Below are positions 49,839 through 62,422 of a stretch of DNA of 64,000 nucleotides, piece by piece. Made by a program: the position numbers and the translations under genes. The notes under the pieces were generated by a model, which had not been told where the DNA came from, did no database searches, and was given only the letters and a program-made list of their open reading frames with translations. How positions within the stretch are numbered: the first letter of the stretch is position 1; each line of letters opens with the position of its first letter. Source of the stretch: a virus; the IMG/VR virus record IMGVR_UViG_3300008263_000022, positions 1-64,000 of that record. One strand, given 5' to 3'.

Positions 49839-50948
49839 TTACCTAATAATTTGAATATCTTTACCTGAAGTCCATACCTCAAGTTCGGTTCTTAATCTAC
49901 CCTCAGATTTAAGGGTTTCGTATCTATTTATAGCTTTACTCCGCCACCATTCGATAACATTATTCAATTCATGTTTATGATAGTTTTCACCAGGTAAAAG
50001 TTTATCGGTTTTTAGGTTAACATAATCAACCATATTTTTAAAACCATAATCACCAACATAATATCTTTTCTTTTCTGTCAACGATTTAGCCTTCTCAATC
50101 GTTAAAGAGAATGCCTCTGCTTCAGGTGATCCCTTTAAAGCAGCTTTAGTGAGAGCAATAATCTTTGTGAATGTTCTCAACTTTCTACTGGTGGTACTTT
50201 CATCACCACCCAAAATATCTCCGACTTTACTTTCAACATATTGTTTTAAATCATTATATGATTGACCGTGCATCATTGGTACTATATCGGATTCGGTAAG
50301 ACCTTTGTATCGAATATATGGTTTCATACCATCATATTGTGATACCTGTTTTGTCGAACCATATAAACTGGTTGTTTCGAACAAACAAAGATTCATACCA
50401 TATTTTTTATTACAGATTTCTCTTACTGTATGACTGGTACAAATGCCAGCCATTAGTTTACCACCTAGGTAATTAAAACCAAATGGCTGAGATGGTACAA
50501 TTACGAATCCCATCATAGCAGAGGCATTGAATCGCTTGGATGTTTCTGTGGTTTGCGAGAACACTTGTCCAAGCATCTCATTGCGTGGTCGCATATAGAT
50601 TACAGGTGAACCTAACCGAATGAAACCTAGAATCTTTCCTGAGTTCTTTTCTCTGACTGCCAATTGTACATTTCTGCCAACTGGTGCTTTATTGATATGT
50701 GATGATGTAATGGAAAGTAATGTTTCCCATGTTTGACCTGGTATTTCTACCACTTCAATATCCATATCATTGGGGTGCATTGAAAAATCTGAAAACAAAT
50801 CATCTTCAGGTGGAAATATTGATGTTGGTATTTGATCGAGAGATTTTATTTTTTCCTCTCGCATGTATTGTTCTATGTCATTATAATTATTAAAATAATC
50901 ATGAAAGACCTTAGCACAATACAAACCATTTTCTCTGGAGATTATCAT
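49839..50948 (-). CDS. DUF4338 (DruA-like) family protein
   Basis: PVGR, GFIRLGSP, VPSQPFGFNYLGGKL, ETTSLYG, SQYDG. Confidence 0.7.
   Translation of the reverse strand: MIISRENGLYCAKVFHDYFNNYNDIEQYMREEKIKSLDQIPTSIFPPEDDLFSDFSMHPNDMDIEVVEIPGQTWETLLSITSSHINKAPVGRNVQLAVREKNSGKILGFIRLGSPVIYMRPRNEMLGQVFSQTTETSKRFNASAMMGFVIVPSQPFGFNYLGGKLMAGICTSHTVREICNKKYGMNLCLFETTSLYGSTKQVSQYDGMKPYIRYKGLTESDIVPMMHGQSYNDLKQYVESKVGDILGGDESTTSRKLRTFTKIIALTKAALKGSPEAEAFSLTIEKAKSLTEKKRYYVGDYGFKNMVDYVNLKTDKLLPGENYHKHELNNVIEWWRSKAINRYETLKSEGRLRTELEVWTSGKDIQIIR
49925..49932 (-). promoter_or_regulatory. T4-type late promoter
   Basis: TATAAATA about 90 bp upstream of the 48577..49836 gene. Confidence 0.6.
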
Positions 50949-60277: not shown

Positions 60278-60991
60278 TTACCATTCACCAGACCAATGTT
60301 TTATATTGGCCTCAGCATAAAATTGTTTTTTTAATTTTTCCCAATCCATGTCACCATCACCTTTATAAATTATTGTATCGTGTGGTGGATGTTCTTTGTA
60401 TGTTTTAATAAACGGAATTTGTTCCATATATTTACGCATCTCAGCAAACTTTTCGACACCAGGATCCGTGTTAATCATTTCACCAAATAATACTGTTGTT
60501 ACGGCGTGCATGTATGTTTGTGGACCTAAAAAGAAAACATTCTTATGTCCTTCATACCGCCTCTGTAATATCAATTCAATTGTTTTTGCTTGAATTGGAT
60601 TTTTAGGTTCAGTCAACATAAAGTCTTGTGAGAAATCCCATTCTAAACAAGTTGGTAACACACACTTTATACCATCTGTTATAATTTCTGAGAATGGTAT
60701 ATTACAAAAACGGTCAATGTCCATGTAAAGACCACCTTCATTATATAATTTAAAGAGCCTCCATAGATCAGTTTTTTCAACTATATGTATATCTTTAATT
60801 AAATTATAATCTCTTTTATTTAAAACATTTTTTAGATATTCATCTACATCATTATCATCATGTACTGTAACAGTCCAGTCAGGATTCAAATCAATTAGTT
60901 TGCGCAAACCATTGACAATGAGTGGTGATTTACTGTCGACCACATCTTTAGTCTTCCAAGCAACGTGTGCAATTTTAGGTATGGAACTCAT
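60278..60991 (-). CDS. GT32-like DXD glycosyltransferase
   Basis: IPKIAH, DLWRL..LYNEGGLYMDID, GP. Confidence 0.85.
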   Translation of the reverse strand: MSSIPKIAHVAWKTKDVVDSKSPLIVNGLRKLIDLNPDWTVTVHDDNDVDEYLKNVLNKRDYNLIKDIHIVEKTDLWRLFKLYNEGGLYMDIDRFCNIPFSEIITDGIKCVLPTCLEWDFSQDFMLTEPKNPIQAKTIELILQRRYEGHKNVFFLGPQTYMHAVTTVLFGEMINTDPGVEKFAEMRKYMEQIPFIKTYKEHPPHDTIIYKGDGDMDWEKLKKQFYAEANIKHWSGEW

Positions 60992-60999
60992 TATAAATA
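60992..60999 (+). promoter_or_regulatory. T4-type late promoter
   Basis: TATAAATA 5 bp before the J-domain ATG. Confidence 0.6.
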
Positions 61000-61004
61000 C
61001 ATGT

Positions 61005-61616
61005 ATGAATAAAAATCTATATGATATCTTAGGCGTTTCTAAAAATGCAACATTTGAAGAAATTAAAGCCAAATACAAATCTCTTGCTCAACAACATCAT
61101 CCAGATAAAGGTGGCGATCCTGAAATATTCAAGGAAATAAAAAACGCCTATGAAGTTTTAAGTGATCCTGTTAACAGGAAAAAATACGACACCACAGGCC
61201 ACTACGAATCTGGTACAAGTCTCCGTGATCAAGCTCTAGAACAACTTAGTCGGTTATTTTTCAATTTACTTTCGAACATTAATCCTGATCTTGATGATTT
61301 AATACTAATTATGAAAAATGAAAGCAGACGAGAAAAAGAAAACATTAATGGTAATATCAATGCTTGTAATGCACAAATGTTTAAATTAAAAAAAATAATC
61401 AATAAAATTAAAAAGAAAAAAGATGATGGTGAAAATTTGTTAAAAATGTTTGCTGAAAACAAATTAAAAATGCATCAAAATGAGTTACAAAATTTTGTTA
61501 GGCAAATACAAATAGTTGATAGTGTAATTGAAATACTGGAAGAATACCAATATGGTGATGTGTCAATTTTACTCGAATCATTTGTAAATCCTGAATCTGT
61601 TCCTCATAACAATTAA
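61005..61616 (+). CDS. J-domain (DnaJ-like) co-chaperone with coiled coil
   Basis: YDILGV...HPDKGGD...AYEVLSD...YD. Confidence 0.9.
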   Translation: MNKNLYDILGVSKNATFEEIKAKYKSLAQQHHPDKGGDPEIFKEIKNAYEVLSDPVNRKKYDTTGHYESGTSLRDQALEQLSRLFFNLLSNINPDLDDLILIMKNESRREKENINGNINACNAQMFKLKKIINKIKKKKDDGENLLKMFAENKLKMHQNELQNFVRQIQIVDSVIEILEEYQYGDVSILLESFVNPESVPHNN

Positions 61617-61692
61617 TGGTGCCCCAACCATGACTCGAACACGGGACCTACTGATTACAAATCAGTTGCTCTACCAACTGAGCTATTAGGGC
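61617..61692 (-). tRNA. tRNA-Thr(TGT)
   Basis: gccctaatagctcagttggtagagcaactgattTGTaatcag...gttcgagtc...ggcacca. Confidence 0.92.
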
Positions 61693-61743
61693 TCTTTTTT
61701 GCAACTGCCATGACAACTGCCATGATATAGTCCTTAAAGAATT

Positions 61744-61813
61744 TGGAGCGGTGGTCTAGATTCGCACTAGATGAGTAAGTTGGACACCTACTCTGGTTCT
61801 ATACCCCGACCGC
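61744..61813 (-). tRNA. atypical tRNA-Gly-like RNA (70 nt)
   Basis: GCG...CGC-U73-CCA Gly acceptor identity; TGCGAAT T-loop; minimal D-arm; anticodon loop tgTCCaa. Confidence 0.6.
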
Positions 61814-61831
61814 ATATGTAATACTATAACA

Positions 61832-62368
61832 TTATATAGTGTGATTGTCAACACTTATTTGTGGTATATTTAACCATGCTATTGGTTCTGGCTTGAGTGG
61901 TGCATCCGGATTACGAATATCACTAAACACTTCCCACAATTTTTCTTTGATAGCAAATTTGGTAAACAATCCTGTTGATAATCCAAAAGCTTCAATTTCC
62001 CATGGCTCATCATAGTAATTTAAGTTTTCTGTAATTTTTTGGCCTCTCCAACGAGTGCCATATTCATTCATTTCATTATAGGCATATTGTTTAACATGAA
62101 TCATTTCATGTGCTAATGTTTCTAGTATATCATGTGAACCTATAACCGGATTCAATTCTATTTGAAATTCTCTAGGTTTATTGCTTTCGTTGTAGTTCAA
62201 TACATCAGCATAACCCAAAACATCAAGTTTAGAGTTAAATTTAATCCGAACACATATATTTTCTAACATCTTAGGTGTCATCAATTGTTCAGCATAAAAA
62301 ATAGCTGCACGTTTAACAAATGGTCGAAAACGTTTTTTATCGGGACATCCGATTATACTGAGTTGCAT
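61832..62368 (-). CDS. zinc metallopeptidase-like protein (HExxH)
   Basis: TLAHEMIHVKQY, PWEIEA. Confidence 0.8.
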   Translation of the reverse strand: MQLSIIGCPDKKRFRPFVKRAAIFYAEQLMTPKMLENICVRIKFNSKLDVLGYADVLNYNESNKPREFQIELNPVIGSHDILETLAHEMIHVKQYAYNEMNEYGTRWRGQKITENLNYYDEPWEIEAFGLSTGLFTKFAIKEKLWEVFSDIRNPDAPLKPEPIAWLNIPQISVDNHTI

Positions 62369-62422
62369 CTGAGGTTTCTCCTGTGAAAACCAACTAACAC
62401 TTCTCAAATATTTAGGTACTAT

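Follow-up and report, generated by a model that had tools for sequence, protein, structure and literature searches.

The window analysed here is a 64,000-nucleotide (nt) stretch of viral DNA, positions 1 to 64,000 of the IMG/VR record IMGVR_UViG_3300008263_000022, and we identified within it a 70-nt tRNA-Gly-derived RNA at 61744..61813. The RNA is encoded on the minus strand, running from 61813 to 61744, as are the five canonical tRNAs of the window. An initial annotation, made from the sequence alone, had described the element as a tRNA-Gly-like RNA, and its description was confirmed in the minus-strand sequence; the strand itself and a bulged or mismatched C6 in the acceptor helix are two details that go beyond it. 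The RNA starts with GCGG and finishes with CCGC-T-CCA, which gives the claimed glycine ends G1-C72, C2-G71, G3-C70 and U73 with an encoded CCA, together with the pair G4-C69. In the acceptor helix, G4-C69 is followed by a U-A pair, by C6 and by two further G-C pairs. The D-arm has a 3-base-pair (bp) stem (GGU/ACC) and the loop AUAGA without GG, and the long anticodon-like helix comprises 7 bp (GAGUAGG/CUUACUC) with the loop UGUCCAA, in which position 33 is G; pairing of U32 with A38 would extend this helix to 8 bp and shrink its loop to 5 nt. The variable region is reduced to 1 nt, a single connecting A, and the T-arm has a 5-bp stem with the loop UGCGAAU, where UGC replaces UUC. The 3-bp D-stem with a loop lacking GG, the extended stem gagtagg/cttactc, the loop tgTCCaa without U33 and the T-loop TGCGAAT instead of TTCGAAT had all been noticed in the initial annotation. 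The minimum-energy fold showed the same four-way shape at -25.5 kcal/mol (z = -2.98), a value equalled by 1 of 200 shuffles.

The suspected non-canonical nature of the RNA agreed with the behaviour of the tRNA finders. ARAGORN did not call it, and a relaxed threshold gave 0/19 variants; the Rfam tRNA model RF00005 did not match it in a 401-nt slice even at E <= 10, and Rfam at gathering thresholds returned only the five canonical tRNAs in the whole window. Of the canonical tRNA features, U33, G18-G19, U54-U55-C56, the 5-bp anticodon stem and the 4-5-nt variable loop are absent, and in the type B relatives described below the purine at 37 is missing as well. Retained are a 7-bp acceptor helix (with C6 bulged or mismatched), the discriminator base, the CCA end and a T-arm with 5 bp and a 7-nt loop. 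The glycine identity set U73, G1-C72, C2-G71, G3-C70, C35 and C36 is complete in the window RNA and in all 71 distinct sequences of the family defined below. The available text of a review (PMC9976931) gives U73, G1-C72, C2-G71, C35 and C36 as the bacterial glycine identity and reports that the toxin TacT reads U73 and G71. The proposal that the element is a tRNA-Gly derivative is supported.

The promoter-like sequence that had been pointed out just upstream is a sigma-70-type promoter, TTGACA-17-TATAGT, on the minus strand at 61823..61851, with 11/12 matches and a -10 box that ends 9 nt before G1. Among 90 distinct upstream and element contexts of the family, promoters with at least 9/12 matches were found in 69 and with at least 10/12 in 68, and in 67 of the 69 promoter-bearing contexts the -10 box ends 8 or 9 nt before G1. 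The 21 contexts without such a promoter include 3 second copies in tandem pairs, and several others that lie directly after a gene end. The promoter is presumably used.

To place the element among relatives, 55 viral loci were retrieved through the SprT-like protein encoded next to it, and synteny was counted in this set. The same slot holds the RNA in 45/55 loci, in two architectures, 26 of type A (70 nt, as in the window) and 19 of type B (67-68 nt). In these 45 loci the slot has one layout, which is a conserved promoter, an RNA starting with GCGGU and ending with ACCGCUCCA, and then the Shine-Dalgarno sequence and ATG of a basic open reading frame (ORF) of 53-68 amino acids (aa). The other 10 loci comprise L047-L050, where the protein is 66% identical and of which L049 and L050 carry the RNA elsewhere, L051, which is cut at the contig end, and L052-L056, in which no RNA copy was found at the locus. 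Types A and B have in common G1-C72, C2-G71, G3-C70, U73-CCA, the D-loop UAG, the T-loop NGC and a CC in the long hairpin. The element is 91-100% identical in relatives, compared with 79-99% for the flanking protein.

Covariation was examined in three alignments. In alignment A1 (type A, 11 distinct sequences) 253/253 cells are paired, with double changes at 4 pairs, and slid controls gave 29-49%; in A2 (type B, 8 distinct) 176/176 cells are paired, again with double changes at 4 pairs, and slid controls gave 20-67%. All helix substitutions in A1 and A2 are compensatory or wobble changes. The enlarged type B alignment A4 (43 distinct sequences, L089 and L142 being omitted because of a loop indel) has 99.0% of 946 cells paired and double changes at 12/22 pairs, with slid controls at 27-64%. 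Compensatory cells in A4 numbered 95 against 26 ± 6 in shuffles, none of 500 of which reached 95, a comparison to be read with the caveat that related sequences may outscore shuffles even where no structure exists. Such a kinship artefact is made unlikely by the slid controls and by the number of different pair types. Compensatory changes touch all four helices; in A4 the D-stem shows G-C to A-U in 20/43 sequences, and the T-stem U-A to C-G in 12/43 and to G-C in 3/43. The RNA is thus real and under structural selection, far beyond chance. The initial annotation had named, as what would make the element a decaying pseudo-tRNA, a lack of conservation and covariation in relatives; the element is clearly conserved there, with compensatory changes.

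A pattern of features shared by A and B (GCGGU, D-loop AUAG and CACCGCUCCA) was then used for a wider viral search and matched at least 118 viral contigs. From 79 distinct matches we kept 71 (65-71 nt, D-loop TAG), removing GC-rich matches in coding DNA (for example L108, L109, L114, L116, L122, L124, L131, L138, L146 and L173) and two canonical tRNAs (L130 and L157:5855). The 71 distinct sequences align in 70 columns and include intermediates between A and B. Invariant in all of them, and not imposed by the search, are C31-C32 (tRNA positions 35-36) and G49-C50 of the T-loop (positions 55-56); the D-loop UAG is also invariant, having been selected for in this set. Other positions vary, namely 33 (G, C or U), 34 (U, A or G) and 37 (A or C). 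The acceptor pair 5-68 covaries (U-A, A-U and G-C), also in second copies obtained with a looser pattern. In some contigs (L174, L099 and L154) A-like and B-like copies stand in tandem.

The covariance model R1 was built from the 43 type B sequences only, and with it the window's type A element reached 32.1 bits, at an E value of about 1e-6 to 1e-5, and was the sole copy in the 89.6-kb source contig. It also found one copy in each of four large relatives. Two 79-nt sequences with the same ends (L162 3189-3267 and L172 7630-7708), each after a terminator-like hairpin, reached 27 bits with R1; they may represent a larger form of the family.

The distribution of the two architectures was compared with a maximum-likelihood tree of the flanking gene, built on its last 534 nt in the 35 distinct sequences that represent the 45 loci. 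The A/B label changes 7 times on this tree, and at least 4 of the changes are forced by well-supported branches, such as that of the type A locus L016, which is nested in a B clade with 99/98 support. Shuffled labels need about 12 changes, and only 2/500 shuffles needed as few as 7. These switches indicate that the cassette was repeatedly swapped among close relatives across conserved flanks. Such swapping fits diversifying or balancing selection, and also plain mosaicism.

The neighbours of the RNA point to its likely origin. In 17 distinct variants a canonical tRNA-Gly (UCC, once GCC) lies 1-7 nt downstream, often with another tRNA about 56 nt upstream and the promoter in the gap. This neighbouring tRNA-Gly has U8, a D-loop with GG, the loop UUUCCAA, a 5-bp anticodon stem and a UUC T-loop, and it has the same GCGG/CCGC top, U73 and encoded CCA as the RNA. 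Of the canonical features named above as absent from the RNA, it lacks none. The type A loop UGUCCAA differs from its UUUCCAA by one base. When R1 was run over 812 kb of the loci at E <= 1, the full-length canonical tRNAs that were identified were all tRNA-Gly (about 26 bits in L115 and L129, 16 bits in L130), and with filters off the single weak match in the eight-tRNA cluster of T4 was again its tRNA-Gly (13.5 bits). Judged from these sequences, descent of the RNA from a phage tRNA-Gly(UCC) is the best explanation. In a complete 168-kb relative the RNA stands at the end of a 24-tRNA cluster that includes Gly(GCC) and Gly(UCC), and in a complete 236-kb relative the order is Trp-Asn-Tyr, the RNA and Gly(UCC). 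No canonical tRNA-Gly was found in the window's 89.6-kb contig, which is incomplete. As relatives hold a canonical tRNA-Gly beside the RNA, the latter is an additional species and not the phage's only tRNA-Gly.

Among cultured phages, R1 returned nothing at E <= 1 in the whole records of Pelagibacter phages Mosig and HTVC008M, S-SCSM2R, S-SSM7 and T4, nor did an unfiltered search near the DruA-like genes of the two pelagiphages find any copy. An end-motif pattern, however, identified one 74-nt sequence each in Mosig and HTVC008M, with the loop UUACCAA (U33 and A37), G55-C56 in the T-loop and a D-loop without GG. ARAGORN called the HTVC008M copy tRNA-Gly(ACC) and missed that of Mosig, and neither phage record has a tRNA annotation at the site. 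From their sequences, these 74-nt pelagiphage RNAs look like larger, less reduced relatives. As the B-only model missed them, R1 is too narrow and under-samples the wider family. In the Mosig record (L290, MT647606 7774-7869) a hypothetical coding sequence (CDS) of 31 aa, Mosig_000011, is drawn over the RNA, and in HTVC008M (L289, NC_020484 91140-91213) the unannotated RNA lies 14 nt ahead of the gene for a phage ribosomal protein S21.

We consider it highly probable that the element is a functional, structurally selected tRNA-Gly derivative that is very unlikely to decode. Decoding tRNAs universally or almost universally have U33, a purine at 37, G18, U55, the 26/44-48 region and an anticodon stem of 5 bp. 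With the identity features fixed and the decoding features lost, selection appears to keep the marks read by glycyl-tRNA synthetase (GlyRS) and the tRNA ends, and not codon reading. In the proposed sequence of events, the host sigma-70 RNA polymerase would transcribe the RNA from its own promoter, as the conserved promoter at a fixed distance suggests, and tRNA-like trimming would follow, with RNase P presumably cutting at G1 and the CCA already encoded. Host GlyRS would then charge the RNA, since G1-C72, C2-G71, G3-C70, U73, C35 and C36 are strictly kept. EF-Tu and the ribosome would largely ignore it because of G33 or C33, an often pyrimidine 37, G55, the lack of G18, the 7-9-bp anticodon helix and the 1-nt variable region. 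In the use that we prefer, the glycine would be handed to a phage transferase, for which a DruA/DUF4338-family protein is the sole candidate partner found. Glycylation of the RNA is, on its sequence, rather probable; the whole chain, up to a private glycyl carrier for a phage transferase outside protein synthesis, is proposed tentatively, its probability falling somewhat short of even. The non-ribosomal tRNA-Gly of the initial annotation is partly supported, in kind; its use as a glycyl donor or decoy is conjectural.

The partner was sought in the source contig and the four large relatives (5 records, 2 of them 100% complete). The upstream contexts of 171 element instances (71 distinct) have a SprT-like gene in 41 cases and a DruA-like protein in 16; 33 instances have no upstream ORF, with usually a tRNA there instead, and the remainder are assorted. 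In the 16 distinct loci, which belong to a sister clade, a gene for a DruA-like protein of 425-447 aa (Pfam PF14236, E 1e-17 to 1e-22; PADLOC DruA) ends 19-61 nt before the RNA. Homologues 62-65% identical to it occur in 5/5 of the large element-bearing records, and DruA-like proteins are found in Mosig (59% identity) and HTVC008M (55%). Two candidate partners are encoded in the source contig, a DruA-like protein of 421 aa identified by homology (contig 68968-70233, outside the window and about 7 kb from the RNA) and a distant DruA/DUF4338-family paralogue of 369 aa on the minus strand of the window (49839..50948; Pfam PF14236, E = 3.6e-9). That aquatic T4-like phages, SAR11 myophages included, pair a mini tRNA-Gly with a DruA/DUF4338 enzyme and use glycine outside translation, for example in modification of DNA or another macromolecule, is an unlikely though conceivable version of this proposal. 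If it were true, DruA-family proteins, including the unexplained DruA of the Druantia defence, would be aminoacyl-tRNA-dependent transferases.

Several observations weigh against the carrier role or its proposed partner. Known aminoacyl-tRNA-using families are absent, as FemAB, Acetyltransf_6, LPG_synthase_C, Leu_Phe_trans and Mom (PF25680) each gave 0/5 records. The built-in controls for the first four families matched known genomes, 4/14 and 10/14 of them in the case of PF02388 and PF13480; the PF25680 control matched one known genome only, below the cut-off. Mu Mom itself, as a positive control, scored 2.4e-75 with PF25680. In the window's own clade, none of the 80 loci closest to the contig's DruA-like gene has the RNA within 1.5 kb, and in the contig itself the two lie about 7 kb apart. 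The RNA occurs in at least four genomic contexts, of which adjacency to DruA is one, so that this adjacency may reflect chance synteny within a single clade. The DruA-like family is very common, with at least 566 stretches of viral DNA and 3607 proteins in the database. Comparison of the DruA-like protein with Mu Mom by hhalign gave a probability of about 0.1%, both with a single sequence and with an 18-member alignment, and the protein has no match to any PDB sequence. The available part of a preprint on YprA and Druantia holds nothing on the chemistry of DruA. The invariance of the first four acceptor pairs is partly imposed by the pattern in the pattern-derived loci, although not in the 45 protein-derived ones. 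The early-type sigma-70 promoter fits takeover or counter-defence at least as well as a donor role. Expression is weakly hinted at by metatranscriptomes, as Logan contigs of three of four runs span the element (X15 record 7, X16 record 14 and X17 record 20) with 0-3 differences and a depth of 2-18, and those of X18 end at 61847; these are RNA-library contigs whose ends, strand and level are unreadable, and they are compatible with DNA carry-over or read-through.

Perhaps the RNA is instead a decoy or sponge, which, made early and in bulk, either charged or as a mimic of the acceptor end, absorbs a host defence enzyme attacking tRNA-Gly, such as a Gly-tRNA-Gly-acetylating GNAT toxin of the TacT/AtaT2 type or a CCA-end-modifying enzyme. 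Excluded from the ribosome, the RNA could be damaged without harm, and the adjacent canonical tRNA-Gly would replace damaged host tRNA. The consensus early-type promoter of 69/90 contexts and the frequent pairing with a canonical tRNA-Gly are in line with this, and the swapping of A and B alleles at one locus (7 switches, at least 4 forced) would be expected from an arms race or from balancing selection, although ordinary mosaic recombination across conserved flanks explains it too. U73 and G71, which TacT reads according to the review cited above (PMC9976931), are invariant, and phage tRNAs have already been proposed as a counter to tRNA-targeting defences in the accessible text of PMC10264068. 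However, a decoy for a reader of the acceptor end has no obvious need for the D-loop UAG, the T-loop GC and the long helix. We regard the decoy, whose toxin and target would be hypothetical, as rather unlikely, but as an explanation to be taken seriously. A role in processing, stability or synthetase control, with no glycine passed on, appears improbable. The RNA would here be a tRNA-shaped handle by which RNase P or RNase E is brought to the co-transcribed tRNA-Gly, tRNA-Thr or small-ORF mRNA for their maturation, or a titrator or regulator of GlyRS. It always comes first in its transcription unit, ahead of a tRNA or the small ORF, whose Shine-Dalgarno sequence follows the CCA by 12-15 nt, and the G of the invariant D-loop UAG could form the G19-C56 elbow pair with the C of the T-loop NGC. 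RNase P reads the tRNA elbow. Yet the window RNA is unchanged although the ORF is deleted and no tRNA-Gly follows it, the canonical tRNAs of the same clusters need no such helper, and the strict conservation of C35-C36 is left unexplained.

Residual decoding would require an unorthodox, compensated cloverleaf, as in some mitochondrial tRNAs, that decodes GGN or resists anticodon nucleases. The helix sums of type A are indeed roughly kept (acceptor 7 + T 5; D 3 + anticodon helix 7), and the 74-nt SAR11-phage relatives have U33 and A37, with ARAGORN's Gly(ACC) call in HTVC008M. Against this, only C35-C36 is fixed in the anticodon loop, with 33 and 34 free to vary as given above and 37 often C, a Watson-Crick 32-38 pair closes the loop to 5 nt, G55 stands instead of the universal U55, and complete relatives already hold canonical tRNA-Gly(UCC) and tRNA-Gly(GCC); we consider decoding very improbable. 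The rejection of the RNA by tRNA finders is also what a decaying pseudo-tRNA or a chance cloverleaf would give. Decay hardly agrees with an RNA that is more uniform than the protein beside it (91-100% against 79-99%), whose helix changes are all compensatory, which has a dedicated promoter, and whose two architectures are both maintained, in tandem in some contigs. This last explanation is refuted by the covariation counts, and we give it almost no weight.

Among known systems, the nearest counterpart of the RNA is the staphylococcal non-proteogenic (NP) tRNA-Gly, a likeness already drawn in the initial annotation and in agreement with the available text of PMC7826273. There, the NP tRNA-Gly species carry TGC or TGT for TTC in the T-loop; they are poor ligands of EF-Tu and the ribosome and the favoured substrates of FmhB, FemA and FemB. 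Like NP1-NP3 of S. aureus and S. epidermidis, the phage RNA is an extra tRNA-Gly paralogue beside a proteogenic tRNA-Gly, with glycine identity kept, and it shares UGC for UUC in the T-loop, the departures in the D- and T-loops being expected to weaken use by EF-Tu and the ribosome (PMC7826273). Because of UGC in place of UUC, no pseudouridine-55 is possible. The NP tRNAs, however, are full-size cloverleaves of a staphylococcal lineage that tRNA finders call and that have FmhB, FemA and FemB as partners (PMC7826273). The phage RNA has 66-70 nt, a 3-bp D-stem, a D-loop of 4-5 nt, a 7-9-bp anticodon helix and a 1-nt variable region; it lacks U33 here, has its own promoter and is phage-encoded, with a Fem gene in 0/5 records. 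By this comparison it is not of the staphylococcal lineage.

Other systems are less close. Mu Mom moves glycine from Gly-tRNA-Gly to the N6 of adenine in double-stranded DNA and accepts all three E. coli isoacceptors, and the accessible text suggests that the enzyme recognises the acceptor end (Silva et al., Nat Commun 2026, PMC13219725). It uses host tRNA-Gly isoacceptors, Mu encoding no tRNA (PMC13219725), whereas here an RNA is encoded and PF25680 was absent from the five records. The T4 RNAs rnaC (species 1, 139 nt) and rnaD (species 2, 119 nt), as annotated, are likewise stable RNAs other than tRNAs inside a T4-type tRNA cluster, but they are about twice as long and had no match to R1. 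In reduced mitochondrial tRNAs, a short D-arm and short connectors are offset by a longer anticodon helix, and these tRNAs still decode; in the phage RNA, unlike them, the decoding positions of the anticodon loop are not conserved.

No description of this RNA family was found in the open-access literature searched, and in the accessible part of a methylophage paper the term 'tRNA-like' is applied to transfer-messenger RNA only. The family is missed by standard finders, and public records are blank at its sites or overlaid with a CDS, in spite of its presence in at least 118 viral contigs and its clear structural selection. Should the RNA be a tRNA-Gly dedicated to work off the ribosome, it would join the staphylococcal NP tRNAs as the second such case in nature and be the first viral one, and it would show which tRNA features may be stripped while the marks read by GlyRS stay. 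This would fit the 2026 finding that phage enzymes can take Gly-tRNA-Gly as a chemical donor (PMC13219725, accessible text). The 74-nt relatives in two cultured Pelagibacter phages offer an experimental handle.

The source of the window is an 89.6-kb IMG/VR contig with an estimated completeness of 53% and a GC content of about 35%. It carries T4-type replication genes, with a family B polymerase (phrog_262) that is at most 55% identical to cultured cyanomyophage polymerases, and genes for dCMP deaminase, NifU, DnaJ and glycosyltransferases. Its DNA was seen in freshwater and lake metagenomes from many studies; the carrier is a freshwater T4-like phage. A megablast search with 5 kb around the element returned only matches of tRNA size, and when both the A and the B element were compared by blastn with 50,697 phage records, nothing was found at E <= 1.

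Directly upstream of the RNA, on the same strand, lies the gene for the 191-aa SprT-like zinc metallopeptidase with the motif HEMIH (61832..62407; Pfam SprT-like E = 6.6e-5, below the curated cut-off), which is syntenic in the 45 loci and belongs to PHROGs families of unknown function. We also considered this protein as a disguised acyltransferase and rejected the idea, as it has the HExxH motif, metallopeptidase-type Pfam hits only and no PADLOC or PDB sequence hit. Downstream on the minus strand, a 12-codon ORF remnant (MAVVMAVAKKEP and a stop) at 61685..61723, with the Shine-Dalgarno sequence AAGGA at 61731-61735, stands where relatives carry the full basic ORF of 53-68 aa after the RNA. 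In the window and its nearest relatives the remnant runs into a tRNA-Thr, with the RNA and its promoter untouched. Since the RNA and its promoter have outlasted the loss of the small ORF, the RNA is more than a leader of this ORF. The full ORF begins with MAVSKSKKKNPMLTKNGKPRLGPLN, and its final codons overlap the tRNA-Thr in several relatives; in the window, a duplication of 11 bases is found at the junction of the deletion.

The tRNA-Thr(UGU) itself is canonical (61617..61692, minus strand; called by ARAGORN, 69.6 bits with Rfam), co-oriented with the RNA and 51 nt downstream of it, and in many relatives it follows the RNA or its small ORF. A gene for a DnaJ-domain protein on the plus strand (60900-61616) converges on the unit of tRNA-Thr and RNA; in relatives its place is occupied by the small basic ORF and further tRNAs.

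Some minor observations concern the DruA-like genes. The 421-aa type adjoins a peptide deformylase gene both here and in Mosig, and the 369-aa type corresponds to a 'putative cytoplasmic protein' of cyanomyophages whose gene lies amid those of the clamp loader (in S-SSM7 between gp44 and gp62). Gene SSCSM2R_152 of Synechococcus phage S-SCSM2R (L285 904-2025) was deposited as 'methylcarbamoylase mom'; it matches Pfam DruA (E = 9e-9) and not Mom, so that the annotation is, by sequence, probably wrong. After the DruA-like gene of HTVC008M and the DruA-like-MazG pair of Mosig (L284 2640-2700 and L283 3165-3215), a stretch of about 60 nt with a GUGCG...CGCAC hairpin was detected, which could be a terminator or a small RNA.

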